DNA of 62,597 nt from a bacterium (GTDB lineage Bacteria > Patescibacteriota > Patescibacteriia > JBAXGH01), in contig JBAXGH010000005.1 in the NCBI GenBank assembly GCA_037139515.1, forward strand, positions 1 through 62,597, in the 5' to 3' direction. Each line of letters opens with the position of its first letter. Within the stretch, counting starts at the first letter, position 1. The position numbers and the translations under genes are program-made. Below, piece after piece: positions 32,760 through 48,134 of this stretch. The notes under the pieces are model-generated. The model saw only the letters and a list, made by a program, of their open reading frames with translations. It searched no databases and was not told the origin of the DNA.

Positions 32760-33971
32760 ATGCAGTCTCTGTTTTCAAATAATGTGAATTTCATGCCGCT
32801 TGCTGACCGCATGCGGCCTTTAAACTTGGCCGAATATGTCGGACAGGAGCATCTTTTAGGAGAAGGAAAGATTCTGAAGCTCGCAATTGAGCAGAAACAA
32901 ATTCCCTCGATGATTCTTTGGGGGCCGCCGGGGAGCGGGAAAACCACGCTCGCGCGAATTCTTGCGGAGGCGAGTGGCGCCGAGTTTTTGCAGATGAGCG
33001 CTGTGACCGGCGGCATCAAAGAAATCCGTGACACGGTGAAGCTTGCCGAGGCGTCGCGTGATTTGGGTAAGCGCACGATTTTGTTTATCGATGAAATTCA
33101 TCGATTCAATAAATCTCAACAGGATGCTTTTTTGCCGTACGTAGAAAACGGCACTTTCATTTTAATCGGCGCGACCACGGAAAATCCATCCTTCGAGGTG
33201 AATAGCGCTTTACTTTCGCGTGCCAAGGTTTTTGTTTTGAACGCGCTTTCTGTTGAAACTATCGAAACCGTGATTCGGCGCGCACTGCTTGATAAAGAAC
33301 GCGGGCTTGGCGCACGAAAGCTCAAGATCAACGACGAAGCGATATCGTTTCTCGCGAACATGTCGAACGGTGATGCCCGGGTCGCTTTGAATGCGCTCGA
33401 ACTCGCGGCGACGACGGGCGTGAGCATCAAAGACGCGCTTCAAAAAACTCATCTTTTGTACGATAAAGGCGGGGAGGAGCATTACAATATAATTTCGGCG
33501 TTACATAAGTCGATGCGCGGGAACGATGCTGACGCGGCCTTGTATTGGTTGGGAAGAATGCTTGAAGGCGGCGAAGATCCGCTTTATATCGCGCGGCGTC
33601 TGATTCGATTTGCTTCCGAAGATATCGGCCTGGCAGATCCGCAGGCGTTGGTTCAAGCCGTCGCCGCTTATCAAGCTTCACATATGCTTGGGATGCCGGA
33701 GTGTAATGTGAATTTGGCACAGTGCGTTGCGTACATGGCGCGCGCTCCGAAAAGCAATGCGCTTTACATGGCTTATGGTGCGGTGAAAGCTGACATTGAC
33801 GAGATGCCGAATGAAGGCGTGCCGCTTCACTTGCGCAATGCACCTACGAAGCTCATGAAAAACCTGGATTACGGAAAAGGTTATAAGTACACTCCGGAAT
33901 TCAAGAACGCCGAGGAAGCGAAGCAGGATTATTTGCCAAAATCACTGAAAGGCAAGAAATATCTCAAATAG
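32760..33971 (+). CDS. rarA: replication-associated recombination protein A
   Basis: LWGPPGSGKTTLARILA and FIDEIHRFNK. Confidence 0.95.
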   Translation: MQSLFSNNVNFMPLADRMRPLNLAEYVGQEHLLGEGKILKLAIEQKQIPSMILWGPPGSGKTTLARILAEASGAEFLQMSAVTGGIKEIRDTVKLAEASRDLGKRTILFIDEIHRFNKSQQDAFLPYVENGTFILIGATTENPSFEVNSALLSRAKVFVLNALSVETIETVIRRALLDKERGLGARKLKINDEAISFLANMSNGDARVALNALELAATTGVSIKDALQKTHLLYDKGGEEHYNIISALHKSMRGNDADAALYWLGRMLEGGEDPLYIARRLIRFASEDIGLADPQALVQAVAAYQASHMLGMPECNVNLAQCVAYMARAPKSNALYMAYGAVKADIDEMPNEGVPLHLRNAPTKLMKNLDYGKGYKYTPEFKNAEEAKQDYLPKSLKGKKYLK

Positions 33972-34054: not shown

Positions 34055-35104
34055 TTGCTGATTGCAATCATTAGCCAGTTCGAAAATGCTTTGCAGTTGC
34101 TTGAAAGACTGTTTCATCACCAGTACGCGAGAGGAGGCGACTACAAGTTCGAATGGATGTCGCAGAGCCTGCGCGGACTACTCATGAACGGAGCGGAGCC
34201 TGATTGGATTCGCGCACAGTACATGCTTCACAGGGACGAGCTTTTTCATGAAGGCAGGAGAGTCTATGGCGCGACCAGGTTTCTGCCATATGAACTCGCA
34301 CGGTTCGTTCGCGAGAAGCGCGCTTATCGGCTGACTCAGGATGAGCTCGCGGGACTTTCGGGAATTACGGTACCGTTTCAAAACGTTCGTTTTCCGCACA
34401 GCTGTTTTGCGATCGAGCTTGCCGAGCCGCTCATGGACAAGGTTGGAAACCCGTTCAGCACCGTGATTGTCACGGTTGAAGGATCGGGGGAGAACCAGAG
34501 TGTCACACTGACAGTCTTTTCTGATTGGCTCTTCCAGATCGGTACAAGACCAATTGAACAGCTGAACCCGAACGAGTTGGTTCGCTCGATTGAAGTCAGT
34601 GCTGGCGTCATGAAGTCCGAACCGGAGGAACTAAACGAGCAGCTCGAGTTTATGTTCTCGAAGTGGCCAACGCTTCGTGAGCATGCCGCGGATTTCTGGT
34701 TCGCCTGGATCTCGATCGTTTCGCACCTTTCGAATCGGCTCGCCGAAGCGGCGCCCGGACCGGTTTTCAGGAATTCGCTTCCCGTTGGGCCGGTTTTGCC
34801 ACCGCTGCCGCCGTACGCGGTGACGCAACCGCAAACGCCATTCGATGTGAAAGAGATGAATCTTCAGGCGCCACCAGTCCAGAATCAGCCACCACAGCCA
34901 GTTCCAGGTGCGACGGCGGTAGTGACGCGTCGCCAGGGGCGTGAGCAAAATCCAACGGCGCGCAGCGGTTATGATCGTACTTACCCGGGCCAGAAAGGGG
35001 TTCCGAACGCGCCGAAGTTTCATGTGAACGGCTACACCACACGCCACGACCTTCAGGCGCTCGGTGTCCCGGTCATGGGCAAGCGCACCAAAGTCGGGAA
35101 ATAG
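34055..35104 (+). CDS. hypothetical protein with a Pro/Gln-rich C-terminal half (GC-richer)
   Basis: 349-aa ORF with a TTG start; an alternative ATG lies at 34157. Confidence 0.5.
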   Translation: MLIAIISQFENALQLLERLFHHQYARGGDYKFEWMSQSLRGLLMNGAEPDWIRAQYMLHRDELFHEGRRVYGATRFLPYELARFVREKRAYRLTQDELAGLSGITVPFQNVRFPHSCFAIELAEPLMDKVGNPFSTVIVTVEGSGENQSVTLTVFSDWLFQIGTRPIEQLNPNELVRSIEVSAGVMKSEPEELNEQLEFMFSKWPTLREHAADFWFAWISIVSHLSNRLAEAAPGPVFRNSLPVGPVLPPLPPYAVTQPQTPFDVKEMNLQAPPVQNQPPQPVPGATAVVTRRQGREQNPTARSGYDRTYPGQKGVPNAPKFHVNGYTTRHDLQALGVPVMGKRTKVGK

Positions 35105-35196: not shown

Positions 35197-35733
35197 CTAC
35201 TGAATGATGCGAACGACGTTCGGGTTGTTGCGTTCAGCGCCCTTGTCATCAAGTCCGAAGCCCACGAGGAAATAATCCTTGGGAACTTCCCGGCCGACGA
35301 AGTCGAGAGGAACGTCCTTGTGCTGGTCCTTCTCGGGTTTCGAGAGAAAAGCGCAGATCGCAAGGCTCTTCGGGTTCGAGATGCCGATGTGGCGGTACGC
35401 GGCGTGAAGCGTGTTCTTCGTGTCTGAGACGTCTTCGGTGATGATGACATCGCGCCCAGTCATCGGTTGCGAGGTGTCGAAGACCAGACGCAGTTTGCCG
35501 GCTTCCTGGCCATCGCCATAGGATTCGTAGCACATGAAGTCTATGCGGCAGGTCTTCACGCGTCCATCGCGCCAAATGGCTTGCGACAGGAAGACGATGA
35601 AATACGCTGCGCCTTTCAGAATTCCGACGAGTGTAATGTCTTTCCCGGCGTATTTGTCGCCGATTTCGTGGGCGAGTCTTTGGATGATTCCGGGAATCTC
35701 ACTTTCGTGAATCACGATGGCATAATTTGGCAT
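35197..35733 (-). CDS. hpt: hypoxanthine phosphoribosyltransferase
   Basis: VIITEDVSDTKNTL PRPP loop. The start is at MPNYAIV, preceded by AAGGAG. Confidence 0.8.
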   Translation of the reverse strand: MPNYAIVIHESEIPGIIQRLAHEIGDKYAGKDITLVGILKGAAYFIVFLSQAIWRDGRVKTCRIDFMCYESYGDGQEAGKLRLVFDTSQPMTGRDVIITEDVSDTKNTLHAAYRHIGISNPKSLAICAFLSKPEKDQHKDVPLDFVGREVPKDYFLVGFGLDDKGAERNNPNVVRIIQ

Positions 35734-35827
35734 ACTGAACTCCTTTCGCGGTGCCCTGGTAGTGAAAGGTGCGGGGCTAGAGAATATCATCTCGGACGCC
35801 TTTTGCAAGGCAAAAGGTTTTACTGAG

Positions 35828-35870
35828 TTATCCACAGTTGGTGACTGTCACTAAAGGGACAGTCACTATC
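35828..35870 (+). repeat. left copy of the inverted repeat bracketing uvrA (DnaA-box-like 9-mer plus R2 palindromes)
   Basis: TTATCCACAG-ttg-GTGACTGTCACTAAAGGGACAGTCACTAT. Confidence 0.85.
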
Positions 35871-35935: not shown

Positions 35936-38464
35936 ATGACCGAATTCATCACAATAAAAGGCGCAAGAGAGCACAATTTGAAGAATGTCAGCTTGAAGCT
36001 CCCGCGCAATAAAATGATCTGTTTTTCGGGGCTTTCCGGCTCCGGCAAGTCTTCGCTCGCTTTTGATACGATTTTTGCTGAAGGTCAGCGCCGTTATGTC
36101 GAATCGCTCTCGGCTTATGCTCGCCAATTCTTGGGTCAGATGCAAAAGCCGGATGTTGATGAAATCGAAGGTCTTTCGCCGGCGATTTCCATCGACCAAA
36201 AAGCTCACAGCGCCAATCCGCGTTCGACGGTCGCGACTATTACCGAAATTTACGACTATCTTCGCGTGCTTTTTGCGCGTGTCGGCGAGCCGCATTGTCC
36301 GCTTTGCGATACCGTGATTCGCAAAATGACGATTGATGAAATGGTGGATCGAGTCGTTCGCGAGAGTGAAAAACAAATCGAAGCCGAAACCAAGAAAAAA
36401 TCGAAGCGAGTTTTGATTTTAGCACCGGTCGTGCGCGGTCGAAAGGGTGAGTATTATCAAATGCTCTATGATTTTTATAATGATGGTTTTGCCAAAGCCC
36501 GTATCGACGGCACGGTAAAATCACTTTCAGAACGTGTCGAGCTTTCAAAATACAAAGCTCACACGATTGAAATCTTGATGGATGAGCTGACTCGCGAAGA
36601 ACTCGGCAAAATCAATAAAGACACACGTCAGCGACTGTCTGAAGCGATGCAGTCGGCGGCCGAACGCGCCGGCGGACTCGTAACGGTGGTTTTTCCGGAC
36701 GGTTCCGAAAAGATGTTTTCAACCAAGTGGTCCTGTCCGAATGATGGTTTTAGTTTTCCAGAAATCGAACCGCGCTTATTTTCTTTCAACTCGCCATACG
36801 GTGCCTGCGAAACCTGTCACGGTTTGGGTACGGAGTCGTTATTTTCGGAAGCTCTGTGTCCAAAGTGTAAGGGCGACCGTTTGAAGCCGGAATCTTTGAG
36901 CGTATATATCGGAGGAAAATCGATTGTTGACATCGTGAGAATGTCGATTGACCACGCCGTTGATTTTTTCCTGACACTCGAACTTGATGAAACGGAAAAA
37001 CAAATCAGCGAAGCGGTCATGAAAGAAATTATCTCGCGTCTGCAATTTATGCTCGACGTTGGTTTGAATTATCTTACGTTAAACCGCGGCGCTGGTACGC
37101 TTTCGGGCGGCGAGGCTCAACGTATCAGACTGGCTTCTCAAATCGGTTCGCGCTTGGTTGGCGCGCTTTACGTGCTTGATGAGCCAACGATTGGCTTACA
37201 TCAGCGTGATAACGATAAACTTATCGCGACGCTTAAAGATCTGCGTGATATCGGAAACACGATTATTGTGGTTGAGCATGACGAAGATACGATTCGCGCC
37301 TGTGATTATTTAGTGGATTTCGGTCCGGCTGCCGGAAAATACGGCGGTGAAATTGTAGCAGCGGGTCCGATGCCGGAAATCTTGAAAGATAAAAAATCGC
37401 TCACGGCGGCGTATTTGCGCGGCGATAAAATTATTGAAATTCCGAAAAATCGCCGGGCACCGCGTGCTGATAAGCTCAAAATCATTGGCGCGACCGAAAA
37501 CAACCTTAAAAATATCAACGTCGAAATCCCGCTCGGCCGCTTCACTTGCATTACCGGCGTTTCCGGTTCCGGCAAGTCGACTTTGATGCACGATATTATT
37601 TATCAGCATCTTGCGCGCCGTTTGAACGGGGAAATGGGCCGTCCGGGAAAGGTCAGACAAGTTTTGGGCGTCGAATATTTGGATCGCGTGATTATGATTG
37701 ACCAGGGTGCAATCGGTCGCACCCCGCGTTCAAATCCGGCGACTTATACCGGCATGTGGTCGCATATTCGAGATTTGTTTGCGACGACCGAAGAGGCTCG
37801 TTATCGCGGGTTTAGCGCCTCACGATTTTCCTTTAACCGCCCCGGCGGACGCTGTGAAAACTGCGAAGGCAACGGTCAGATCGCGATTGAGATGCATTTC
37901 TTGCCTACGGTTTTTGTGACCTGCGATGTTTGTCGCGGACGTCGTTTTGATCGCGAAACTTTGGAAGTTTTGTTCCGCGGAAAAAATATCTTCGAAATTC
38001 TTGAGCTTCCAATCGACGAAGCTCACATATTCTTCAAAGATATTCCGGCGGTTGAAGATCGCTTGAAAGTTTTGAAAGAAGTCGGGCTTGGATATTTGAC
38101 GCTCGGCCAATCGGCGACGACGCTTTCGGGCGGTGAGGCGCAGCGCATCAAGCTCGCAAATGAGTTAGCTAAGCGTCAGTACGGCAAGACCATGTATCTA
38201 TTTGATGAGCCGACAACTGGTTTGCATTTTGAAGATATCCGAAAGTTGCTTGAAGTGATGCAAGAACTCGTGGCGCGCGGCAATACCGTGGTTACAATTG
38301 AACATAATTTGGACGTGATTAAAGTCGCGGATTGGGTGGTTGATTTGGGTCCAGAAGGTGGCGATAAAGGCGGCACGGTAATGGGCGTCGGTACGCCGGA
38401 AGATATCGCGAACGATAAAAAATCGTATACCGGTCAATATTTGAAACGCGCGTTAAAAAAATAG
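35936..38464 (+). CDS. uvrA: excinuclease ABC subunit A (842 aa, shorter than typical)
   Basis: Two ABC modules (GLSGSGKSS, GVSGSGKST, LSGGEAQR twice) and zinc modules. Confidence 0.95.
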   Translation: MTEFITIKGAREHNLKNVSLKLPRNKMICFSGLSGSGKSSLAFDTIFAEGQRRYVESLSAYARQFLGQMQKPDVDEIEGLSPAISIDQKAHSANPRSTVATITEIYDYLRVLFARVGEPHCPLCDTVIRKMTIDEMVDRVVRESEKQIEAETKKKSKRVLILAPVVRGRKGEYYQMLYDFYNDGFAKARIDGTVKSLSERVELSKYKAHTIEILMDELTREELGKINKDTRQRLSEAMQSAAERAGGLVTVVFPDGSEKMFSTKWSCPNDGFSFPEIEPRLFSFNSPYGACETCHGLGTESLFSEALCPKCKGDRLKPESLSVYIGGKSIVDIVRMSIDHAVDFFLTLELDETEKQISEAVMKEIISRLQFMLDVGLNYLTLNRGAGTLSGGEAQRIRLASQIGSRLVGALYVLDEPTIGLHQRDNDKLIATLKDLRDIGNTIIVVEHDEDTIRACDYLVDFGPAAGKYGGEIVAAGPMPEILKDKKSLTAAYLRGDKIIEIPKNRRAPRADKLKIIGATENNLKNINVEIPLGRFTCITGVSGSGKSTLMHDIIYQHLARRLNGEMGRPGKVRQVLGVEYLDRVIMIDQGAIGRTPRSNPATYTGMWSHIRDLFATTEEARYRGFSASRFSFNRPGGRCENCEGNGQIAIEMHFLPTVFVTCDVCRGRRFDRETLEVLFRGKNIFEILELPIDEAHIFFKDIPAVEDRLKVLKEVGLGYLTLGQSATTLSGGEAQRIKLANELAKRQYGKTMYLFDEPTTGLHFEDIRKLLEVMQELVARGNTVVTIEHNLDVIKVADWVVDLGPEGGDKGGTVMGVGTPEDIANDKKSYTGQYLKRALKK

Positions 38465-38501
38465 TGACTGTCCCTTTAGTGACAGTCACTACTGTGGATA
38501 A
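38461..38501 (-). repeat. right copy of the inverted repeat bracketing uvrA
   Basis: Reverse complement reads TTATCCACAG-ta-GTGACTGTCACTAAAGGGACAGTCACTAT. It overlaps the uvrA stop codon. Confidence 0.85.
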
Positions 38502-38531
38502 GTCTGGGTGAATAAAAAAACCCGTGACACG

Positions 38532-40094
38532 TCAGACGGACGTGTTCACGAGTTGGAGCTCTCTGATTCTTTCGTGCAGGGTGACGGCTTCCTTCGAAAG
38601 CGGGTGGCCGTTCTTTGCGATGAAGGAAATCATTCCCTTCGATTCGGCGAGCATCCTCTGGCGCGTGAGCCAGCGCACCGCTTCACCGTATTGCCGTCGG
38701 CTGAACTGACTCCCGAAGTTCTGCTCGATTTGCAGAACCAGCTTTTCGTTCGCGATAGGCGCCTTCATGCCCGAAATGTACGACAGGATGATTTGAGCGT
38801 GAAGCGCGACACCTCTTTCGCGAATCACGTCTTTCACCTGCAACGCGCCGTATTCGAAGGCGGGCTTGAATTCTTCCGGCTTCGATTGGATTTCAACCGA
38901 GGGTTCTTTCGAATTAGGCGCCTCGATTTCCGTGAAGTCCGCCGCGTGCCGGGTTTCTTTGTACATCGCGAGACGCTCGGCTCGGGTCATGGGTTTGGAG
39001 GACGGCGGAGTGCTGCTCGACAGCGGCTTCTTTTCTGCAGCATTCCGTTCCGCATCTGCAGTTTCCTGCAGTTTCCCGCGGCGCTCGTCTTCGGGAAGCT
39101 TCGCGAGCAAATCGACGAGCTTTTTGAAGCTTGCACGTCCGCGGCTGTGCTTTGCCGCGTCGAGCGCAAGTCCGGAGCCAATCTTCAGAACCGCAGTAAC
39201 CACTTCGTGGGCGGGGATGAGGGAAGAGAACTGGTTGCAGATTCGCGATGTGTTCAGGATTTCACCGCGCGCTCCCAGCGTCTTGATTTCCTCGACGCCG
39301 CAAATCGTCAGGCAGTCACGGATGAAGACTCCGCATTCGTGGACTTCCTCGGTCGTCTTTGCGAGCGCCTCGAGTGTCTCCGAATTGAGCTGACTCAGTC
39401 GCTTGGTGCTGTCATGCACCTTCAAGCCGGAGCACATGCTGACCTTGGCCATGTTGTTATAGATGGTCATGAGCGAGTCGCGTTTGCCGAAAACCGCTTC
39501 CCTTGGAACCTTCAGGTCCTCCGGAGTTTTGGTCGGCACGAACTTCCAAAGTTGTGCACTTGCGACGAAGAGGTCGATCATTTCCTGCCAGTCGGCTTCA
39601 TTCAATTCCGCGAGTCTCGGCAGATCTTGGGCGTCTTGAGGATAGTTCACGCTTCTCCCAAAAACCTCACGAGCCTCATCACAGGTCGGGACTGAGTCGA
39701 GCGCCATCATGATTTCGTGGAAGCGCGCCGCTCCGAGATTGTGGATGACGTCGTGGTTTGGGAGTATCACCGCATTCCTATCCGTGCGAGCGCGCGGCAA
39801 AGTTTGATCGACATGAATATCAACGCTCTGCAGCCAGTATTGGTAACTGGCACATTTTTCGGTGTGCTTTTGTTCAATGCACACGAGCGGGATGGGCTGC
39901 TTCGGAAGGCTGAAACTCCCGAAATATGATTCAGCCAACTCCTTCCAGTCAGCATCGGTCCATCCATTCACGGCTTTCGGGAGACGCTTCGTGAGGCAAG
40001 ATCGAAATGCATCCGCGAAGTGCGTGAAGAGCTGAGTTCTTGTCAGGTCGCGCAGGGAAATCGTAACATCGCCTTTTTCGTTGACCATTTTCAT
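38532..40094 (-). CDS. uncharacterised 520-aa protein, paralogue 1, with a C-terminal winged-helix-like module
   Basis: SD GGGAG. Shares blocks with 40221-41771: TISLRD, ARFHE, FIRDCLTIC, LVDLLAKLPE, LQVKDVI, LHAQ, FSRR..GEAVRWL. Confidence 0.75.
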   Translation of the reverse strand: MKMVNEKGDVTISLRDLTRTQLFTHFADAFRSCLTKRLPKAVNGWTDADWKELAESYFGSFSLPKQPIPLVCIEQKHTEKCASYQYWLQSVDIHVDQTLPRARTDRNAVILPNHDVIHNLGAARFHEIMMALDSVPTCDEAREVFGRSVNYPQDAQDLPRLAELNEADWQEMIDLFVASAQLWKFVPTKTPEDLKVPREAVFGKRDSLMTIYNNMAKVSMCSGLKVHDSTKRLSQLNSETLEALAKTTEEVHECGVFIRDCLTICGVEEIKTLGARGEILNTSRICNQFSSLIPAHEVVTAVLKIGSGLALDAAKHSRGRASFKKLVDLLAKLPEDERRGKLQETADAERNAAEKKPLSSSTPPSSKPMTRAERLAMYKETRHAADFTEIEAPNSKEPSVEIQSKPEEFKPAFEYGALQVKDVIRERGVALHAQIILSYISGMKAPIANEKLVLQIEQNFGSQFSRRQYGEAVRWLTRQRMLAESKGMISFIAKNGHPLSKEAVTLHERIRELQLVNTSV

Positions 40095-40135
40095 TTTGAA
40101 TCTCCCTTGGTGAGCGCATATTTCAGCGCTTTTTG

Positions 40136-40183
40136 GAAAGGTCCTACTTGTGCTATTTGGCCATGTTTACACGATATTGTCAA
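40136..40183 (-). promoter_or_regulatory. conserved upstream block of paralogue 1 (contains TTGACA)
   Basis: Minus strand reads TTGACAATATCGTGTAAACATGGCCAAATAGCACAAGTAGGACCTTTCC, which matches the block at 41811-41857. Confidence 0.5.
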
Positions 40184-40220
40184 GCTCTCGAATTTGACGA
40201 TTAAAAAAGCCCGCGAACTG

Positions 40221-41771
40221 CTAGTTAAGCTGGTTTGCGAGCAGGGAATTGATACGGTCATAAAGGAGCGAGGCTTCCTTCGAGAGCTTGCGCTCGGAGC
40301 GCTTCAGGAACACGAACCGGTTTTTGCTTCCATCGATGAGTCCGTTCTTGCTGAGCCATCGAATCGCTTCGCCGAACAGTCGTCGGCTGAACCTGGAAGC
40401 GAGTTCGGCTTCGACTTTTGCGAGCAGCGCTTCGGCCGCGATGGCGTCATCTTGGCCAACGAGATTTGCGAGGATGCTTTGAGCGTGTAGACCCACGGCC
40501 TTTTCCACAATCACATCTTTCACTTGAAGCTCAGAATACTTGAAAGGTGCGATTTTGATTTCGGCGGCGGGCATGATTTCGGGCACCAGCTCGACTGGCT
40601 GTTCCGGGTCGGTTTCGACTTCGGCGAGCTCTAGAGCTTCTTCGTAGGCACGCTTGCGCTCTTCGCGTGTGAGCGGCTTCGGCGAGCTGATCGACGGCTG
40701 CGAAGGTGGCGAACTTGGTGTCTGGTTCGCACTCATTTCCTTGAGCTTTGCAAAACGCTCGGCTTCGGGGAGTTTCGCGAGCAAATCGACGAGGCGTTCG
40801 AAAGCTTTCTTTCGGCCGAGAACGCTTCTCGCGGCTTCGAGCGTCAGCAAGGCGCCGAGCTTCAGAGCGGCTTTGACGATGATGTTTGGCGAGAGGGTTG
40901 CTCTGAACTCGCGCCAGATGACAACTACATTCGTAAGCTCATTGCGTCCGGAAACCGTCTTCACGTCTTCCGGGTTGCAAATCGTGAGACATTCACGCAC
41001 GAAGAGGTTATTCGGAAAAGCTTGGCAGGCAACTTCGAGGAGCTGGACGATGCTTGTTTCATCGAGACTATTCAGCACCACGGAGCAGCTCGTCGTTTCA
41101 AGGTCGGCGTAATCCATGATTTGAAAGATGCTGACAACAAGATCGCCGAGACACTTCTGCCAAAGAAGACTCACTTTGGTTGGCAATCTTTTCGCCGCGA
41201 AGAAGGGAGAAACCTTCGCGGTCAGCATCCTGGCACCGGCGAGGATGGCAACTTTGAGCGTTTGCCATTCGTACTCGCTGTGTTCACGGAGAGGCTTGCG
41301 CCCGTCGATTGTCTCGAACCGATCCATGCACTCAAGAAACGCCACCTGGCAGTCTTCATGGAGCGGCAGCGTGATGAACTCGCGCATGACTTCATGAAAC
41401 CGCGCGGAACCCATTTTTTCGGCACAGAGATTGCTTGGTAGCATGACTGTGCCCTGACCGGGCGGGAAGCGCAGAAAAGTTCGGCTGATGTGTTCGCCGA
41501 CGATCTGTTTCCACACCGGAACTGCGTAGCAATCCGTGTTCTTGTGGTTTTCTACGATGCACTTGTATGGCAAATGAGTTTCGAGCCGGAAGTTCCGGAA
41601 GTAGTACTCAGCTGCATCGAGCCAGGTAGCTTCGGTCCAGTCGCCGATTGACTCCGGGACCATTTCGACCAGGTTTTCACGGAACGTTGTCTTGAAGCAC
41701 CGGAATAGTTCGGCGCGTGAGATATCACGCATCGAAATCGTTGCTTCGCCTTCGTCGTTGATTAGATCCAC
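40221..41771 (-). CDS. uncharacterised 516-aa protein, paralogue 2
   Basis: GTG start preceded by AAGGAG. Homologous to 38532-40094 along its full length. Confidence 0.75.
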   Translation of the reverse strand: MDLINDEGEATISMRDISRAELFRCFKTTFRENLVEMVPESIGDWTEATWLDAAEYYFRNFRLETHLPYKCIVENHKNTDCYAVPVWKQIVGEHISRTFLRFPPGQGTVMLPSNLCAEKMGSARFHEVMREFITLPLHEDCQVAFLECMDRFETIDGRKPLREHSEYEWQTLKVAILAGARMLTAKVSPFFAAKRLPTKVSLLWQKCLGDLVVSIFQIMDYADLETTSCSVVLNSLDETSIVQLLEVACQAFPNNLFVRECLTICNPEDVKTVSGRNELTNVVVIWREFRATLSPNIIVKAALKLGALLTLEAARSVLGRKKAFERLVDLLAKLPEAERFAKLKEMSANQTPSSPPSQPSISSPKPLTREERKRAYEEALELAEVETDPEQPVELVPEIMPAAEIKIAPFKYSELQVKDVIVEKAVGLHAQSILANLVGQDDAIAAEALLAKVEAELASRFSRRLFGEAIRWLSKNGLIDGSKNRFVFLKRSERKLSKEASLLYDRINSLLANQLN

Positions 41772-41810
41772 GTCTGACTCCTTCTTTGAGCGCCTCTTGG
41801 CGCTTCGGGG

Positions 41811-41857
41811 AAAGGTACTGCGTGCGTAATTTGGCCATGTTTAGACACTTTTGTCAA
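41811..41857 (-). promoter_or_regulatory. conserved upstream block of paralogue 2 (contains TTGACA)
   Basis: Minus strand reads TTGACAAAAGTGTCTAAACATGGCCAAATTACGCACGCAGTACCTTTCC. Confidence 0.5.
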
Positions 41858-41876
41858 CTTGCGATATATTCGGGTT

Positions 41877-43238
41877 ATGCCATTCCCGAAGAATATCATC
41901 ATTAAGAGCGGAAAGCTGCCGGAAAACCCGGGGGTTTACTTTTATTATGATCCCAAGGGAAAGCTTCTATATGTAGGTAAGGCGACTTCTTTAAAGCGCC
42001 GAGTTTCTTCGTATTTCAACAAAACTCACGATGATTTCAAGACCGGCGAATTGGTTTCGCGGATTTATCGGATTGAATATGAAACCACTGAAACGGTGAT
42101 TGAAGCCCTTGTCTTGGAGGCGAACATGATTCGAAAGTTCCTGCCGCCGTTTAATATCAAAGGCAAGGATGATAAATCGTTTTTGTATTTGTGTATCACG
42201 CGTGAGAAGTTTCCGCGACCTTTGATGTATCGCGGTGGGGAATTGGAAGACATGGGTTATGTTTTGAATAAGCTTGGCGCACCGGAAAGTCGTCGCGATA
42301 AAAAATTCCTGGCGATTTTCGGGCCGTATACGAGCGGGCCATCTTTGTGCGCATCGCTCAAACTGATTCGCAAGTCGATTCCGTTTTGCACGCAGGGACG
42401 CATCGTGCGACGGGGACTGTCCCCAAAGCCGCAGGGGACTGTCCCCTCGCACGATGATGCGTTATCAGATAGGCAAAAAACGCGGGCTTGTTTTTATTAT
42501 CATATCAAGCAGTGCCCGGGAGTTTGCGTCGGCGCGATTGAACCGAAAGAATATCGAAAATATATTCGCGATTTGATTCGCATTTTTTCGGGCAAGAAAA
42601 AAGATATTATCCGTGATTTGAAACGGGGGATGAACGAAGCTTCGGCCGCTCAGGAATACGAACGTGCGGCACTGCTTCGAAACCGCTTGTATGCGCTGAC
42701 TCACATTCACGACGTGGCAGTGATTACTTCGGAACGCGTGGCTGAGGCTGATCAGGGAGCTAAGCTTGGACGCATCGAAGCCTACGATATTTCAAATATC
42801 TCGGGGACAAATTCCGTTGGCTCGATGACGGTTGCGATAAATGGCGAGCCCGCGCCAAGCGAATATCGCAAGTTCAAGATTCGCACGGTAAAAGGCGCGG
42901 ATGATTTTGCTTCGATGGCCGAGGTTTTATCGCGACGATTTTCGGACAAGAATCGGGCGGCGTGGGGAGTACCGGATTTGATTGTGATCGATGGCGGCTC
43001 GGGCCAGGTTCATGCGGCGCGAAAAGTCTTATTGTCATACGGACTAGATATTCCGTTAGTTGGTTTAGCGAAGGGCTTTGATCGCAAGCAGGACGTTCTG
43101 GTTTTTGATCGGAATAATCCTGAGTTAAAAAAATCAGCTGAGAGGTTTAAGTTGATTTTGCAAAAGGTTCGCGATGAAGCGCACCGGTTTGCCGTAGCAT
43201 ATCATCGCAATCTGCGTGGTCGAATGATGTTTAAATAG
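41877..43238 (+). CDS. uvrC: excinuclease ABC subunit C (short, apparently no C-terminal HhH)
   Basis: GIY-YIG motif (GVYFYYDPKGKLLYVGKA), UVR motif (EYERAALLRNRL), RNase H-like endonuclease domain. Confidence 0.9.
   Translation: MPFPKNIIIKSGKLPENPGVYFYYDPKGKLLYVGKATSLKRRVSSYFNKTHDDFKTGELVSRIYRIEYETTETVIEALVLEANMIRKFLPPFNIKGKDDKSFLYLCITREKFPRPLMYRGGELEDMGYVLNKLGAPESRRDKKFLAIFGPYTSGPSLCASLKLIRKSIPFCTQGRIVRRGLSPKPQGTVPSHDDALSDRQKTRACFYYHIKQCPGVCVGAIEPKEYRKYIRDLIRIFSGKKKDIIRDLKRGMNEASAAQEYERAALLRNRLYALTHIHDVAVITSERVAEADQGAKLGRIEAYDISNISGTNSVGSMTVAINGEPAPSEYRKFKIRTVKGADDFASMAEVLSRRFSDKNRAAWGVPDLIVIDGGSGQVHAARKVLLSYGLDIPLVGLAKGFDRKQDVLVFDRNNPELKKSAERFKLILQKVRDEAHRFAVAYHRNLRGRMMFK
42401..42456. 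repeat. R2 paired-palindrome element inside the uvrC coding sequence
   Basis: CATCGTGCGA-c-GGGGACTGTCCCC-aaagccgca-GGGGACTGTCCCC-TCGCACGATG. It is read through as RIVRRGLSPKPQGTVPSHDD. Confidence 0.85.
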
Positions 43239-43253
43239 AATAACACTTGAAAG

Positions 43254-43290
43254 GGGACTGTCCCCTTAAGCCACAAAGGGGACTGTCCCC
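43254..43290. repeat. R2 paired palindromes
   Basis: GGGGACTGTCCCC-N11-GGGGACTGTCCCC, 16 nt after the uvrC stop. Confidence 0.85.
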
Positions 43291-43492
43291 TTAGGAGCTA
43301 AAAGGGGCAGACCTCTTTTTTTGATTGTCTTTGTTGTTCGGAATTGCTTGTGGATAATTCGCTAGGTTTAGGCAATATGGCTCAATCGAGTGTCAAAGAC
43401 CATTGACACATTCCTCAAAAAATGCTATCCTACGTTTCGTCCTGCAGTTGGAGGAATCCGGCAGGAATACCCTAACAATCTAAATAAACATT

Positions 43493-44071
43493 ATGTTGAA
43501 ACGCTTAATTGCTGTTCTCGCCATAGTGCTTACCTCGGGTCTTCTTGCCACTCCGCTCGTCGCCTCAGCTGCTACGTGCCCGTGTGTGTGCGAAACGACT
43601 CCGGTAGTGCACATCGGTGACCTTATTAAGGTCGCTGACCGTTCTACGGTGTTCTACATCGCTGAAAACGGTAAACGCTATAACTTCCCGAATGCGGGAG
43701 TTTACAAGTCTTGGTTCGGTAACGACTTCTCGAAAGTGAAGACCGTTTCCAAAGCGGAGCTTCAGCTTCGCCCGCTCGGTGGATACGTTTCGTATCGCCC
43801 GGGTACCAAGCTCATCCAGTTCAACGGTTCGAGCGCTGTTTATGCCATCGGCAAGAACGGTGAACTCCGACACCTTGAAACCCCAAAGGTTGCCGCCGAA
43901 ATTTTCGGTGCTAACTGGAAGAAAATGATCGTGAAATTGCCGGCTTCTTTCTACGGTGCCTATTCGAACTCTTTCGTCATTAAAACGGCGTCTGATTACA
44001 CGAAGGTTACCCAGTCTGAACCTGTCGAAATCTCGTTCACCGTGCCGCTTCACATGACTGTGATGCGCTAA
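43493..44071 (+). CDS. secreted hypothetical protein
   Basis: Signal-peptide-like MLKRLIAVLAIVLTSGLLATPLVASA. Confidence 0.6.
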   Translation: MLKRLIAVLAIVLTSGLLATPLVASAATCPCVCETTPVVHIGDLIKVADRSTVFYIAENGKRYNFPNAGVYKSWFGNDFSKVKTVSKAELQLRPLGGYVSYRPGTKLIQFNGSSAVYAIGKNGELRHLETPKVAAEIFGANWKKMIVKLPASFYGAYSNSFVIKTASDYTKVTQSEPVEISFTVPLHMTVMR

Positions 44072-44085
44072 AGGTAAAAACGAAG

Positions 44086-44114
44086 ACTCCCCTTAATCGG
44101 GGAGTTTTTGTTTG
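44086..44114 (+). terminator. rho-independent terminator
   Basis: ACTCCCC-ttaatc-GGGGAGT followed by TTTTGTTTG. Confidence 0.7.
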
Positions 44115-44127
44115 TATTCTCCTGGTT

Positions 44128-44150
44128 GTCATCCCGAAGCCGAGGGATCT
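44128..44150 (+). repeat. R1 hairpin repeat
   Basis: GTCATCCCGAAGCCGAGGGATCT. Confidence 0.85.
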
Positions 44151-44231
44151 AGTCATGGTTTTTCGCTTTACTCAAGATGACGAACGGGGGTAGAGTATCT
44201 TTGGAAACCGTTCCAAACCAGAGGAAAGGAG

Positions 44232-44606
44232 ATGGAGATGGAGCTCGGACTGCTTGGGTTCTTGCTCATGATGCTCGTTCCGATCATGCAATCGCACATG
44301 CTGGAGCCGTATTTAGGGAGACTCCGCCTGAAGCGGGCGATTTACGAGCTTGCTTGCGAATTCGATGTCTGGAGGTTGCCAATGTTGCCGGTCGCCGCAC
44401 ACACGCAGTCGATGTTCGCTCAGCTTCAGATGCCGCGTTTTGGCGCCGTGATTGGTGCCGCCGCCTGGCTTGCCGTTCTTTGTTTGGCTTTTGGGCCGCT
44501 CTTTTTCTATGATCAGAGCCCCGGGAAGCAGCTTTTCCACGAGAAACCGGAGTTCAGGTTCGTGAGTCCGGACATGCCAAATACGGCCATCTGTCCAAGC
44601 CGCTGA
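44232..44606 (+). CDS. hypothetical membrane protein
   Basis: SD AAGGAG, two hydrophobic segments. Confidence 0.55.
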   Translation: MEMELGLLGFLLMMLVPIMQSHMLEPYLGRLRLKRAIYELACEFDVWRLPMLPVAAHTQSMFAQLQMPRFGAVIGAAAWLAVLCLAFGPLFFYDQSPGKQLFHEKPEFRFVSPDMPNTAICPSR

Positions 44607-44622
44607 AAAGCGGTCTTTTTTA
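44600..44622 (+). terminator. rho-independent terminator
   Basis: CCGCT-gaaa-AGCGG followed by TCTTTTTT. Confidence 0.7.
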
Positions 44623-44658
44623 TCGCTAGAATTAGCCTATTTATCATGTCAGAAAGAC

Positions 44659-44687
44659 TTGACATAAACTATTAAATATGATATGAT
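44659..44687 (+). promoter_or_regulatory. candidate sigma70-like promoter
   Basis: TTGACA, 17-nt spacer, TATGAT. Confidence 0.5.
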
Positions 44688-44755
44688 TTACTAGCAAACA
44701 AGTACTTTATTCGCTCACTACCGCGTCGGCCTTGGCTGACGCAGAAGGGTTTTCT

Positions 44756-45106
44756 GTGAAGACGCTCTTGTTGGTCCTCTCGCTGATGGTGATTTCCACC
44801 CCCGTCCTGGCTCAATCCGAGCCTTCCGCCCCGATGGCCCCGTTCCCGCCGCCGGCCCCAGCCGCTCCGGTCGCACCCGGCACTCGTCCCGCCAAGCCGA
44901 AGACCACCACGGTGGTCTTGGTCGACTGGGTGAAAGTCAACGCGGTCCTCGGCTTCATCGTCAACAGCAGTGCCCGCGGTTTCGCGAAGGGCTGGCACAC
45001 GCCGCTCCCGAAGAACTCTCCGCAGACGAGCGGGAGCAGGACGACGGTGCACCGTTACGGCGTCCCCGGCGCCATGGTCACGGAGACCTGCCGGGATTGC
45101 CGATAG
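44756..45106 (+). CDS. secreted Pro/Ala-rich hypothetical protein
   Basis: GTG start after GAAGGG. Signal-like KTLLLVLSLMVISTPVLAQ. Confidence 0.5.
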   Translation: MKTLLLVLSLMVISTPVLAQSEPSAPMAPFPPPAPAAPVAPGTRPAKPKTTTVVLVDWVKVNAVLGFIVNSSARGFAKGWHTPLPKNSPQTSGSRTTVHRYGVPGAMVTETCRDCR

Positions 45107-45144
45107 TCGATTCACCCTCGGCAGTTATCCGGAATTTTCCAGTT

Positions 45145-45193
45145 GTCATCCTTCGGCCCTCCCGTTGTCATCCCGAAGCCGAGGGATCTTGAA
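45145..45193 (+). repeat. partial plus full R1 hairpin repeat
   Basis: GTCATCCTTCGGCCCTCCC followed by GTCATCCCGAAGCCGAGGGATCTTGAA. Confidence 0.85.
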
Positions 45194-45238
45194 GAGGTTG
45201 TGTGGCGGATCGAAAGGTTCGCCGGAAAGGAAAGCAGC

Positions 45239-45406
45239 ATGTTGAGCCTCACCCTCGCCGCGTTCCTGTCTCTCCCGACCCCGATGATGCCCGCGAGTAC
45301 CGTGCCCGCTGGCATCATCCCCACCCTCATCGCCCTCCGCGTCCCGGTCGGGCTGGAGGCGGAGAAGCGCAAGAAGCATCACAACAAGAAGCGGCGCAGC
45401 AAGTAG
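45239..45406 (+). CDS. small hypothetical protein with a basic tail
   Basis: 55 aa, ends KRKKHHNKKRRSK. Weak call. Confidence 0.35.
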   Translation: MLSLTLAAFLSLPTPMMPASTVPAGIIPTLIALRVPVGLEAEKRKKHHNKKRRSK

Positions 45407-45491
45407 TAGCACCGCTTCAGCCCGCCCACCACCGTCCGGTCGTACAGATTCATTTGTGCGGCCGGACTTTTCAAACTCAGTAAAGGTTCCC

Positions 45492-45552
45492 GGCGAGCGC
45501 CTTAACAAAGCTCGCCCCTAAACTTTGAGCCATCACATTCCCGTGTTGGCTC
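45492..45552 (+). repeat. island spacer, type B hairpin plus pre-SD hairpin
   Basis: GGCGAGC-gccttaacaaa-GCTCGCC, then GAGCCA-tcacattcccgtgt-TGGCTC, then GGAG and ATG 45571. Confidence 0.75.
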
Positions 45553-45570
45553 GAACGAACGGAGAAAGTC

Positions 45571-45828
45571 ATGATTGAAGGAGACGCAATTCTCGGTGAT
45601 ATCGTGGAGGTCATGCACTATGACCGCAATCGACAACAGAACACGTTTTGGCGTGACGTTTACCATCGCATCACGGCGCACGCCGGTCATCGCGAGGGGA
45701 ACTGCATGTCTCACAATATGCAGATTCTGTGCGGTCGGCGAACGGAAGAGGTGATCGCGGTTGCGCGCGACCTCGGCGTCGATCCGCGGACCGAAGACCT
45801 CGCGACGCTGCTCGGACTCGTTCAGTAG
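45571..45828 (+). CDS. hypothetical protein
   Basis: SD GGAGAAAG, 85 aa. Confidence 0.55.
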   Translation: MIEGDAILGDIVEVMHYDRNRQQNTFWRDVYHRITAHAGHREGNCMSHNMQILCGRRTEEVIAVARDLGVDPRTEDLATLLGLVQ

Positions 45829-45840
45829 TAGGAGGGCCAG

Positions 45841-46146
45841 ATGACGGTTGAAGAGAGGTTGATAAGAGCACGAAAGTCGGCGGATTCGGCACGAGCCAAG
45901 GCGGAGAGTTTGGCCCTGGAAATGCCAATCGAAGAGACCCGGCTGGCAGCCGAAATGAACCGCGAAGTCGTTATGCGGATTGGTGAGACCATCGCTGCTC
46001 TCAAGGGCGATGATCACGACAGGTTCATGGCGGCGTGGCATCAGGCTGATGCAGCCGCGGCAAAGCTCATCGGCTTGAACAATCTGATGATCGCGGCGAT
46101 CAGAAAGATTGTCGAACGTTCGGGGGCTTCGGGCGAGTGCGTTTGA
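45841..46146 (+). CDS. hypothetical helical protein
   Basis: SD AGGAGGG, 101 aa. Confidence 0.55.
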   Translation: MTVEERLIRARKSADSARAKAESLALEMPIEETRLAAEMNREVVMRIGETIAALKGDDHDRFMAAWHQADAAAAKLIGLNNLMIAAIRKIVERSGASGECV

Positions 46147-46162
46147 AGCGGTGCTCTTTAAA

Positions 46163-46265
46163 GGTCCGGAAGTATCCTGCTGCTCGAAGTCTTAACTGAC
46201 TCGCGCGAAAATTCCGTCCCTGTCATGTTCCAACATTCAACCGGCGACGAATCAACTTTGTCGTC
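46163..46265 (+). repeat. island spacer, type A hairpin plus pre-SD hairpin
   Basis: GGTCCGGAAGTATCCTGCTGCTCGAAGTCTTAACTGACTCGCGCGAAAATTCC, then GACGA-atcaactttg-TCGTC, then AGAAGGG and ATG 46279. Confidence 0.75.
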
Positions 46266-46278
46266 AGAAGGGAAATTC

Positions 46279-46782
46279 ATGTTTGCGCAAATGATTCCGA
46301 TGTTCGTGTTGGTGGCAGGTTCGACGTCAGGCGACTGGAGCAGTTCGACCAGCTCGACGAACGGTCATTGTTCGTCTTCCTCGTATGCGACGTTCATGAG
46401 TGAGGAATATCGGGCGCCGGTAGATGTCACCGAACAAGATGTCGCAATGCCGTCGCCGGTCGCCGTCGAAGCGTCGAATCGCTGGATGGTATTCTCGCCC
46501 AGTGTTTCCGCGAGCGGTTGCTCGAGCGAGTGCGTGTGGACGCAGAGTTCGAGTTCGAGTTACTTCGCGCCCGAGTACTTTCTTCCGCTCACCCGCATCG
46601 AGCAATTCGAGCCGCACCTTGTTGAGCGGGGCAACGTGAGTGGCGAAAAGCTCAGCCAGCCCGTCGGCGAAGAGCGCGCACAAGCGGGTTTCGGAGCGAT
46701 GATGTGGATCGAGCCCGCTCAGCTCAACTCCCGAGACGGCCGCAGCAAGAAGCAGCGCAGCCGCACTCGAAGAAAGAAGTGA
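46279..46782 (+). CDS. Ser-rich hypothetical protein with a basic tail
   Basis: ATG 46279 follows the spacer. The last ~20 codons lie inside a sequence duplicated at 48462-48529. Confidence 0.5.
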   Translation: MFAQMIPMFVLVAGSTSGDWSSSTSSTNGHCSSSSYATFMSEEYRAPVDVTEQDVAMPSPVAVEASNRWMVFSPSVSASGCSSECVWTQSSSSSYFAPEYFLPLTRIEQFEPHLVERGNVSGEKLSQPVGEERAQAGFGAMMWIEPAQLNSRDGRSKKQRSRTRRKK

Positions 46783-46793
46783 GCTGTTTAAAA

Positions 46794-46884
46794 GGTCCGG
46801 AAGTATCCTGCGCTTGAAGTCTTAACCGGTTCGCGCGAAACTTCCATCCCCAATTCAGCGCATCACAACCCGTGGTGAACTGAA
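46794..46884 (+). repeat. island spacer, type A hairpin plus pre-SD hairpin
   Basis: GGTCCGGAAGTATCCTGCGCTTGAAGTCTTAACCGGTTCGCGCGAAACTTCCATCCCC, then TTCAG-cgCAtCACaacccGTGgTGaa-CTGAA, then AGGAG. Confidence 0.8.
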
Positions 46885-46894
46885 AGGAGTAAGA

Positions 46895-47140
46895 ATGGAA
46901 AAAGCTCAGCTGATTCTCACAATCGACTGCAAGCGGGCAATCCCTGTTATGTCCGGCGCCTTCATCCGGTTTCATGGCGAAACCGTCGGTGATGACGAGG
47001 ATGATGAGCTGGTCGCCAAGATTATTGCCGCTGAAGCCTACGGCGACTCGCAAGCGGAGGCGCACAAGGCGCTTCTCAGAAAGCTCGAAGACCCCAGGCT
47101 GAGTCCACTGAAAATGTGGATTCGGAGTCTCGAGTTCTAG
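46895..47140 (+). CDS. hypothetical acidic protein
   Basis: SD AAGGAG, 81 aa. Confidence 0.55.
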   Translation: MEKAQLILTIDCKRAIPVMSGAFIRFHGETVGDDEDDELVAKIIAAEAYGDSQAEAHKALLRKLEDPRLSPLKMWIRSLEF

Positions 47141-47194
47141 TCCTTTCTCTGGTTATTAACAGGGGACAGTCCCCAGTGAATAGCTCACGGTTCC

Positions 47195-47269
47195 GGCGAG
47201 CGCCGTATCAAAAAGCTCGCCATCCCAATTCAGCCACTGTGAATCACGCGCCTCGCGTGGTCGGCTGAA
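47195..47269 (+). repeat. island spacer, type B hairpin plus pre-SD hairpin
   Basis: GGCGAGC-gccgtatcaaaaa-GCTCGCC, then TTCAGCcAC..CACGCG-cct-CGCGTG..GGCTGAA. A single GGGGACAGTCCCC lies upstream at 47162-47174. Confidence 0.8.
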
Positions 47270-47281
47270 CAGGAGATACTC

Positions 47282-47518
47282 ATGAAAGATGTCGAGGTTG
47301 AAGATTTTGAGCGCAAGCATTTCGAGCGTGTGCAGAAGATGCTTCCACTCATGTGCGTGTTGGGCATCTCTACGGTGCTCGCTTGCTGGATCGGTGGTGC
47401 GTTCTTCCCGGAGGAATTCGTGATTCCGGTGAAGGCTATGACCGCATTGCCCTTGATTGGAGTGTATGTCTTCCTCATGCACGTCACGAAGAAGCTCGCG
47501 CCGGTCAGGACGAAATAG
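47282..47518 (+). CDS. small membrane protein
   Basis: SD AGGAG, two TM segments. Confidence 0.55.
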   Translation: MKDVEVEDFERKHFERVQKMLPLMCVLGISTVLACWIGGAFFPEEFVIPVKAMTALPLIGVYVFLMHVTKKLAPVRTK

Positions 47519-47552
47519 CCAAGAAGCGCGCAGCAATCGGTAAACGGTCATT

Positions 47553-47618
47553 GGCGAGCGCCGTATCAAAAAAAGCTCGCCTCTGTAATCCGAGCCACCA
47601 CACACCCGTTGTGGCTCG
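47553..47618 (+). repeat. island spacer, type B hairpin plus pre-SD hairpin
   Basis: GGCGAGC-gccgtatcaaaaaaa-GCTCGCC, then CGAGCCAC-cacacacccgtt-GTGGCTCG, then GGAGGAG. Confidence 0.8.
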
Positions 47619-47634
47619 AACCTACGGAGGAGTC

Positions 47635-48021
47635 ATGAATGCACATTTGAAGGAAATCTTTGGTGAATTCTTCTTGGAGAACAACGACCCGTCGCTCGAC
47701 GTGACCATCTACGAGGTGGTGCGCCGCTTCGGCCACGATGTCGAGGACCTGCTACGTCGGTACTATCCGGTCAAGGATCGGCAGCTCGGAGCGGCGCTCG
47801 TGTATGCCGACATCCTGCAGTTCGTTCACGAGCACGAACGGGATTTCGGGCACGAGCTCTTCTGGGAGCTACACGGACTTGTGGAGACCGGTGCGTTCAG
47901 CTGGAGCATCAAGGGCCTGGAGCGCACCGTGTATCTGGAGAGGCTGAGCATGTTGCAGCTTCGGAATGCGAAAGAGCTGGATTTCCTCCACACCGTTACC
48001 GGCGTCGACATGTATATGTAA
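47635..48021 (+). CDS. hypothetical protein
   Basis: SD GGAGGAG, 128 aa from the internal ATG of ORF 47353-48021. Confidence 0.55.
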   Translation: MNAHLKEIFGEFFLENNDPSLDVTIYEVVRRFGHDVEDLLRRYYPVKDRQLGAALVYADILQFVHEHERDFGHELFWELHGLVETGAFSWSIKGLERTVYLERLSMLQLRNAKELDFLHTVTGVDMYM

Positions 48022-48023
48022 AA

Positions 48024-48124: not shown

Positions 48125-48134
48125 CAGGAGATGC

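Follow-up and report, generated by a model that had tools for sequence, protein, structure and literature searches.

A tandem pair of orphan paralogues between uvrA and uvrC on an Uhrbacteria-like Patescibacteria contig

Gene content of the locus

The window analysed in this study is the complete 62,597-nt contig JBAXGH010000005.1 (GenBank assembly GCA_037139515.1) of a bacterium assigned to the Patescibacteriota. It carries the excision-repair genes uvrB, uvrA and uvrC on the plus strand, and the interval between uvrA and uvrC is occupied by two tandem open reading frames (ORFs) on the minus strand, which are referred to here as paralogues 1 and 2 (Table 1). Both ORFs were recovered from the ORF list at the positions given in a first-pass annotation of the contig, which had described them as homologous over their full length. 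This description was confirmed by BLASTP, in which the two products aligned from end to end (33% identity, 53% positives, E = 3e-85), and all of the sequence blocks that had been quoted as shared (ARFHE, R(D/E)CLTIC, LVDLLAKLPE, LQVKDVI, LHAQ and FSRR..GEA.RWL) were found among the invariant columns of the alignment. The start of paralogue 1 was placed at the second ATG by NCBI (518 aa; P0002) and at the first in the ENA and Logan assemblies (520 aa). A hidden Markov model (HMM) search of all ORFs in the window revealed no third paralogue.

Over 507 aligned codons, the fraction of bases that differ between the two genes is 0.49, 0.40 and 0.58 at codon positions 1, 2 and 3, respectively, and 77 of their 176 identical residues (44%) are specified by different codons. 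With the second position changing least, the third most, and synonymous turnover at conserved residues, the divergence is of the coding type, and the similarity resides at the protein level. It is scarcely credible, then, that the ORFs are spurious or decaying pseudogenes, or that the true gene is an antisense ORF of 395 aa (38508-39695). Such a reading could draw on the lack of homologues and on the low confidence of the AlphaFold models described below, but two intact frames of ~520 codons have been kept at 33% protein identity with this pattern of divergence and synonymous turnover, the spacing of the Shine-Dalgarno (SD) sequences and the start context are conserved, and the antisense ORF lies over paralogue 1 only, without a counterpart over paralogue 2.

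Homologue and domain searches

Relatives of the two proteins were sought in public sequence collections. A word-indexed search of 5.8 billion protein clusters and a full HMMER search of 1.84 billion representatives of ~15 billion proteins matched only the two proteins themselves, and a two-sequence profile search at E ≤ 10 yielded nothing beyond them. No relative was detected in GTDB genomes, JGI metagenomes or IMG/VR when these were scanned with degenerate patterns, and the 50,697 phage and 72,556 plasmid records searched by tblastn gave no match. The members of the respective protein clusters were identical sequences from re-assemblies of one population (JGI, ENA ERZ27300037 and Logan SRR7053541). 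Since no homologues were found at all, the pair could be placed neither in a characterised family nor among single-copy core genes with conserved synteny. As a control, a neighbouring orphan gene of 349 aa, which shares the elevated GC content at third codon positions (GC3) of the pair, was also a singleton among the 5.8 billion protein clusters. Genes without relatives are therefore nothing unusual on this contig, and thin sampling of the lineage accounts for part of this.

The Pfam, NCBIfam, PADLOC and PHROGs libraries were scanned with the whole proteins and with their separate domains, whereas the PDB was searched with single sequences and with profiles. None of these resources gave a significant match, so that the proteins are uncharacterised, as the first reading of the sequence had put it. 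In PHROGs v4, the best whole-protein value was E = 0.35, and C-terminal fragments reached 0.058-0.18 with families of unknown function. None of the components of nucleotide excision repair (NER; UvrA/B/C/D, Mfd and Cho) was matched by the pair in NCBIfam or Pfam, and no synteny with them was seen in relatives. Mrr_cat and other nuclease domains were not detected in Pfam or NCBIfam. When the alignment of the two copies was inspected by eye, a HEPN motif (Rx4-6H) was rejected, its Arg not being conserved between the copies, a P-loop was absent, and no convincing PD-(D/E)xK motif was conserved between the copies.

These searches bear on an earlier suggestion that the pair might serve in defence, and they lent it no support: the 5027 defence-protein models of PADLOC-DB v2 included no family that matched either protein at E ≤ 1, and no nuclease, ATPase or known defence neighbour was found. 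A two-gene anti-phage module of a new type, residing in a variable slot and composed of one paralogue as sensor and the other as effector, would fit the accessory composition, the tandem arrangement and the lack of matches to housekeeping families. We nevertheless judge it highly improbable. The two genes encode versions of the same protein and not two complementary components, nuclease, NTPase, TIR, Sir2 and HEPN motifs could not be recognised among the invariant residues, the neighbourhood contains no known defence gene, integrase or methylase, and neither the full HMMER search nor the profile search placed a relative in any defence island.

Genomic context and base composition

In a scan of GTDB genomes, the best matches of UvrC came from metagenome-assembled genomes (MAGs) of Candidatus Uhrbacteria and other Patescibacteria, at 45-52% identity (51-52% for the best). 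UvrA and UvrB showed 66-69% and 60-64% identity, respectively, to their relatives in Uhrbacteria MAGs. Because these identities to the nearest MAGs are low, the host is, judging by its Uvr proteins, a deep-branching and poorly sampled Uhrbacteria-like bacterium of the candidate phyla radiation (CPR).

In Uhrbacteria relatives, uvrB, uvrA and uvrC are co-oriented and often nearly abut. The distance between uvrA and uvrC was 3, 12, 18, 18 and 84 nt at five loci and ranged from 3 to 3723 nt among relatives, with the occupied gaps mostly containing small lipoprotein-like genes unrelated to the pair. In the window, the uvrA-uvrC gap measures 3.4 kb, and the uvrB-uvrA gap is filled as well (3.3 kb). 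A homologue of the pair was encoded in none of the uvrC loci of 80 relatives (tblastn), and in every Uhrbacteria locus holding both uvr genes, the uvrA-uvrC gap lacked the pair. Across loci L001-L031 (Uhrbacteria and related Patescibacteria MAGs), both the uvrA-uvrC and the uvrB-uvrA junction behaved as variable slots of 3 nt to 3.7 kb; the former commonly contained a gene for a lipoprotein-like protein of 155-186 aa on the opposite strand and sometimes a ~350-aa gene as well.

The first-pass annotation had noted that the segment is richer in GC than the flanking uvr genes, that it lies just beyond the right-hand copy of a repeat bracketing uvrA, and that it looks inserted. The first two points were verified. 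The GC content of the pair is 0.545-0.553 vs 0.48-0.485 for uvrA, uvrB and uvrC, and the difference resides in GC3 (0.68 and 0.65 for the paralogues; 0.51, 0.50 and 0.51 for uvrA, uvrB and uvrC, respectively), while a hairpin copy of the repeat was located at 38461-38489. The third point is supported by the short uvrA-uvrC gaps of relatives (3-18 nt), by the 80 relatives' loci that lack a homologue and by a GC3 of the accessory type. GC3 is bimodal in the window, with conserved genes at 0.41-0.57 as opposed to a GC3-rich class, which, besides the pair, takes in the 349-aa orphan (0.63), the phosphoribosyltransferase gene (0.69) and small orphan ORFs at 43.5-49.3 kb (0.60-0.78). It is the synteny in relatives and the GC3 composition together that lead us to regard the pair as inserted accessory DNA in a variable slot.

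Alternatively, the insert might be what is left of a mobile element or CPR phage after integration. It would encode, for example, DNA-binding proteins of the replication-initiator or segregation type, and the other orphan genes of high GC3, at 34-35.8 kb and 43.5-50 kb, would have arrived jointly with it. The small orphan ORFs 3' of uvrC, among them a phage-type ATPase/polynucleotide-kinase-like gene, do share its GC3-rich composition, dispersed palindromic repeats lie at the junctions, and the C-terminal domain of the proteins is basic. This origin is still unlikely, since the pair has no PHROG match and no relative in IMG/VR or in the phage and plasmid collections, and since the core genes uvrA and uvrC separate the GC3-rich blocks, which consequently do not form one contiguous island. 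At the borders of the insert, no integrase, tRNA, att-like direct repeat or target-site duplication was found, and the hairpin repeat was the only terminal repeat detected around the 3.4 kb.

Promoter, leader and terminator elements

Each paralogue was found to possess its own SD sequence and a conserved upstream block, as proposed initially, although the block is slightly longer than had been given (58 vs ~47 nt). The two copies of the block are 78% identical over 58 nt and have the invariant 15-mer TAAACATGGCCAAAT in common. In the alignment of the intergenic regions, conservation begins exactly at TTGACA, the -35 box of each unit, and is absent 5' of it. At the DNA level, the block is as conserved as the best coding blocks (72-80% identity), compared with an overall protein identity of 33%. 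The duplication, with a period of 1674-1686 nt, extends over the upstream regulatory region. In the predicted folds of the 5' leaders, CCUUUCC pairs with the SD sequence of the respective gene (AAGGGAG in copy 1, GAAGGAG in copy 2). Both genes have their own predicted terminator-like hairpins, an arrangement that points to two independent transcription units and not to an operon.

The possibility of an upstream ORF conserved between the leaders was considered and discarded by eye: the sequence ATG GCC AAA encodes MAK-stop in copy 1, whereas its frame in copy 2 continues into paralogue 2, with which it is not in register. The 11-mer AACATGGCCAA, which forms the core of the promoter box, has three exact copies in the window, two in the promoter blocks and one at 39445-39455, within the coding region of paralogue 1, encoding NMAK.

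On the opposite strand, the second block copy is overlapped by a promoter-like site for uvrC (Table 1), which ends 6 nt 5' of the uvrC start codon (ATG 41877, as in the ENA gene call). The predicted position of this promoter suggests that the uvrC mRNA may be nearly leaderless.

Table 1. Positions of genes and sequence elements in the window.
Feature	Position	Strand	Details
uvrB	30524-32596	plus
mgsA/rarA	32760-33971	plus
349-aa orphan	34055-35104	plus
Phosphoribosyltransferase	35197-35733	minus
uvrA	35936-38464	plus	NF001503, 1307 bits
Second hairpin (13 bp) + U7	38455-38493	minus	Between convergent uvrA and paralogue 1; right-hand copy of uvrA-bracketing repeat; z -5.8
Terminator-like hairpin + U7	38514-38554	minus	Overlaps paralogue 1 stop codon; minimum free energy (MFE) -21 kcal/mol, z -3.5
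Paralogue pair	38532-41771	minus
Paralogue 1	38532-40094	minus	520 aa; start ATG 40094, 6 nt after SD AAGGGAGA
Paralogue 1 5' leader	40095-40145	minus	Predicted pairing of CCUUUCC with SD GGGAG around inner AGCGC/GCGCU hairpin; MFE -12.5 kcal/mol, z -0.9
Promoter/leader block, copy 1	40126-40183	minus	TTGACA 40178-40183; invariant 15-mer TAAACATGGCCAAAT 40155-40169
Terminator-like hairpin + U6	40203-40242	minus	Overlaps paralogue 2 stop codon and divides the two units; z -2.0
Paralogue 2	40221-41771	minus	516 aa; start GTG 41771, 6 nt after SD GAAGGAG
Paralogue 2 5' leader	41772-41824	minus	Predicted CCUUUCC-SD pairing and inner hairpin; outer stem over GUG start; MFE -20.2 kcal/mol, z -2.4
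Promoter/leader block, copy 2	41800-41857	minus	TTGACA 41852-41857; invariant 15-mer TAAACATGGCCAAAT 41829-41843
uvrC promoter-like site	41842-41870	plus	TAGACA-17-TATATT; 10/12 consensus matches (consensus match only); overlaps block copy 2
uvrC	41877-43238	plus	TIGR00194, 338 bits
23-mer GTCATCCCGAAGCCGAGGGATCT	2733, 32731, 44128, 45167, 50046, 53491, 57495, 60402

The overlap of the paralogue 2 and uvrC promoters invites the idea that the proteins serve NER in this lineage, either as specific regulators or as accessory factors. Their targets would be the 15-mer (overlapping the uvrC -35 element), the GGGGACTGTCCCC palindromes around uvrA and uvrC, or both, and uvr expression would in this way respond to a signal perceived by their Cys/His-containing N-terminal domain. 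The pair indeed lies inside the uvr cluster and is divergent from uvrC, six of the eight GGGACAGTC sites of the window flank or fall within uvrA and uvrC, and Cys and His residues are conserved between the proteins. Relatives, however, run uvrB, uvrA and uvrC without such a gene, and elsewhere the slot holds unrelated genes, so that the adjacency is probably incidental. Palindromes are also present at 47163 and 57378, and binding to any of them is purely putative. We thus consider a regulatory role in NER to be quite unlikely.

Protein architecture and fold evidence

Both proteins are soluble and contain no hydrophobic segment (maximum KD19 1.3-1.4). Their N-terminal ~340 residues are neutral to acidic and include several Trp as well as the conserved residues C72, H77, C81, H94, H126, C261 and C265. 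This part is connected by a Pro/Ser/Glu-rich linker of 65-70 residues to a C-terminal domain of ~110 residues, which is basic (pI 9.7-9.9, net charge +5), in contrast to the neutral or acidic remainder. The identity between the paralogues peaks at residues 316-345 and 406-480, and the C-terminal domain is among the best-conserved parts (40-57% identity in 30-residue windows). Its motif FSRRxxGEAxRWL(S/T) precedes a G/S-K turn and then a hydrophobic stretch of strand-like character, a pattern by which the domain resembles a helix-turn-helix (HTH) with a wing.

The best sub-threshold hints from the libraries and the PDB all fell within the C-terminal 110 residues. They comprise a GntR-type regulator model over residues 453-491 (E = 0.077), DUF2492 (E = 0.047), a phage protein family over residues 435-483 (E = 0.057) and 28 residues of the BAZ2B TAM domain, which topped the PDB sequence matches (E = 0.027). 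Matches to complement factor H, to a 49-residue stretch of the TERT RNA-binding domain (E about 1) and to GluRS were, like the one to BAZ2B TAM, set aside as chance-level.

It had initially been proposed that the last ~90 residues resemble the winged helix of Mrr-type restriction proteins. This assignment was not borne out: in hmmscan searches of Pfam-A, which contains Mrr_N, that profile was matched neither by the full proteins (E ≤ 1) nor by the isolated C-terminal domains (E ≤ 10), and the PDB sequence searches returned no Mrr-like chain.

Interpretation

The pair arose by tandem duplication of an orphan gene of restricted taxonomic range and was acquired as accessory DNA in the variable uvrA-uvrC slot of a deep-branching member of Candidatus Uhrbacteria. 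With regard to function, we propose that the C-terminal domain would be an HTH- or winged-helix-like nucleic-acid-binding module with FSRRxxGEAxRWL as its recognition helix, followed by the G/S-K turn and the hydrophobic strand. The proteins, possibly in the form of homo- or hetero-oligomers, may associate with DNA and have a regulatory or DNA-transaction role, with the 15-mer in each promoter as a candidate autoregulatory site and the SD-sequestering leader gating translation of each paralogue. The insertion, being antisense, would have broken the ancestral uvrB-uvrA-uvrC co-orientation, and uvrC would then be read from the new promoter overlapping the paralogue 2 block. Taken as a whole, with the function included, this explanation is held tentatively, at somewhat less than even confidence, and the nucleic-acid-binding function by itself is rated no higher and perhaps slightly lower. 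The reality of the paralogues, their orphan status, their organisation as separate units and their nature as inserted accessory DNA, each considered without the function, range from likely to nearly certain. Nothing that we saw indicates that the proteins are enzymes or that they serve in defence or excision repair.

Several results weigh against parts of this explanation. Neither Pfam, which remained empty, nor the PDB, whose matches stayed at chance level, gave significant similarity of the proteins to a winged helix or any DNA-binding fold, and an hhalign comparison of the C-terminal domain with the N-terminal domain of LexA yielded a probability of 0.25%. AlphaFold2 models built from two-sequence alignments were mostly helical, with a mean pLDDT of 42.6 for the full-length protein and 51.2 for the C-terminal domain. 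The latter was modelled as five helices, with the putative wing drawn as a helix. Because their confidence is too low, these models give no fold evidence. In a Foldseek search of the full-length model against the PDB, nothing was found at E ≤ 0.001, and TM-scores did not exceed 0.16. As to the regulatory elements, the -10 sequences at 17-18 nt from TTGACA are weak (CCAAAT/CAAATT), a consensus promoter scan did not call the minus-strand promoters of the paralogues, the leader of copy 1 attained a z-score of just -0.9, and the two leader sequences available (n = 2) showed no compensatory changes. The high GC3 could stem from gene age or expression class rather than from horizontal transfer. Finally, the ENA ERZ27300037 and Logan SRR7053541 assemblies are 100% identical to the window at the DNA level, and with all three assemblies identical, the data represent one population.

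A bolder view would hold that the pair represents a new DNA-binding family, possibly metal- or redox-sensing through its conserved Cys and His residues, which, in a CPR lineage with a broken-up uvrBAC cluster, acts on TAAACATGGCCAAAT in its own promoters and at the uvrC -35 element as a LexA-independent control of repair, or else a new two-gene accessory or defence module. We regard this as very unlikely. As a protein family, the pair formally stands outside every known kind, but solely in the sense that searches of ~15 billion public proteins detected no relative and curated libraries gave no match. The honest reading is that the pair is a lineage-restricted dark-matter gene, duplicated and maintained, which is a common situation in CPR genomes. 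Its orphan status carries modest weight: CPR genomes are full of dark matter, the control neighbour is equally orphan, and the lineage is poorly sampled. A long-lived, selected function, as opposed to a young de novo or spurious ORF, is nonetheless argued for by the length of ~520 aa, the retention of two copies at 33% identity, and a regulatory block conserved like the best coding blocks. The locus illustrates how a conserved uvrB-uvrA-uvrC cluster can be broken up by accessory insertions, with uvrC putatively gaining its own promoter. It would be of real interest if the proteins were to regulate repair genes or form a new type of defence.

Other features of the window

A palindromic element with two copies of GGGGACTGTCCCC was observed inside uvrC (42397-42463) and just after it (43250-43299). 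The uvrC-internal copy is in frame, flanked by inverted CATCGTGCGA/TCGCACGATG, and encodes ~20 extra residues (GRIVRRGLSPKPQGTVPSHDDAL), which are absent from this position in eight other aligned UvrC proteins (seven Uhrbacteria-like, one from Paceibacterota); the protein from locus L013 has an unrelated insertion nearby. The match of UvrC (453 aa) to the model TIGR00194 stops at position 539 out of 574, with matches of relatives being similar in length. The protein thus appears, from this alignment, to be devoid of the C-terminal region of canonical UvrC. UvrA is short as well (842 aa), with the profile alignment skipping ~100 positions near residue 300. Its gene is bracketed by inverted copies of a ~45-nt repeat (35820-35869 and 38461-38510), made up of the 29-nt perfect hairpin GTGACTGTCCCTTTAGTGACAGTCAC and ACTGTGGATAA, the right-hand copy of which doubles as a terminator of paralogue 1. 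The sequence GGGACAGTC occurs eight times in the window, as against 0.17 expected occurrences, and six of these sites are located around uvrA and uvrC. A 23-mer (GTCATCCCGAAGCCGAGGGATCT; Table 1) forming a small, REP/MITE-like hairpin has eight copies in 62.6 kb, seven of them exact, on both strands and mostly in intergenic regions, with none expected by chance.

The 349-aa orphan in the uvrB-uvrA gap gave a weak hint of an XRE/HipB-like HTH over residues 80-106 (E = 0.019) and has a Pro/Gln-rich C-terminal half. Downstream of uvrC, positions 43493-49800 harbour ~15 small plus-strand ORFs (32-192 aa, GC3 0.60-0.78). Among the 11 that were scanned against Pfam and/or PHROGs, one was matched, encoding a 152-aa protein that resembles AAA_33/phage-type ATPases or polynucleotide kinases (48872-49330). 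The same run contains internal repeats of 117-166 nt (46694-46859 with 48434-48595; 48017-48132 with 48522-48638) and could represent either a hypervariable region or a mobile element in decay. Near the beginning of the contig, a 183-aa ORF (1713-2264) matches part of RVT_1 (profile positions 8-92 of 205), and may represent a truncated reverse transcriptase, and an 852-aa protein (5894-8452) resembles type IV coupling proteins of the TraG/TrwB type. Both are further signs of mobile DNA on the contig.

Comparison with known systems

The C-terminal ~110 residues of the pair share with winged HTH domains (Mrr_N and those of the GntR, MarR and LexA type) a basic character and, as judged from the sequence pattern, a succession of two putative helices and a recognition-like helix (FSRRxxGEAxRWLSKNGLI), a G/S-K turn and a hydrophobic strand. 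No model is significant for this domain, and the likeness is one of basic charge and sequence pattern only. The pair also differs from Mrr in its architecture: its candidate domain is C-terminal, whereas that of Mrr is N-terminal and followed by a PD-(D/E)xK nuclease, which the pair does not contain.

The match to the MBD-like TAM domain of BAZ2B (PDB 7win), obtained with the two-sequence profile, aligns RQYPEVIKYLSRNGIMDISRDNFSF with RLYGEAVRWLSKQRLLDESKNRIVF. It is short and below significance. MBD domains form a beta-sheet in the region upstream of the matched stretch, whereas the low-confidence model predicts helices in the corresponding part of the domain. The similarity was treated as chance or as a common local motif rather than as homology.

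The closest parallel is provided by the ORFan genes of CPR bacteria and Patescibacteria. Like these, the pair has no homologue outside one lineage, no domain annotation, an accessory composition and a place in a variable slot, and the neighbouring 349-aa gene behaves identically. It departs from them in being unusually long (~520 aa), in having been kept as two copies at 33% identity, and in its conserved regulatory block.

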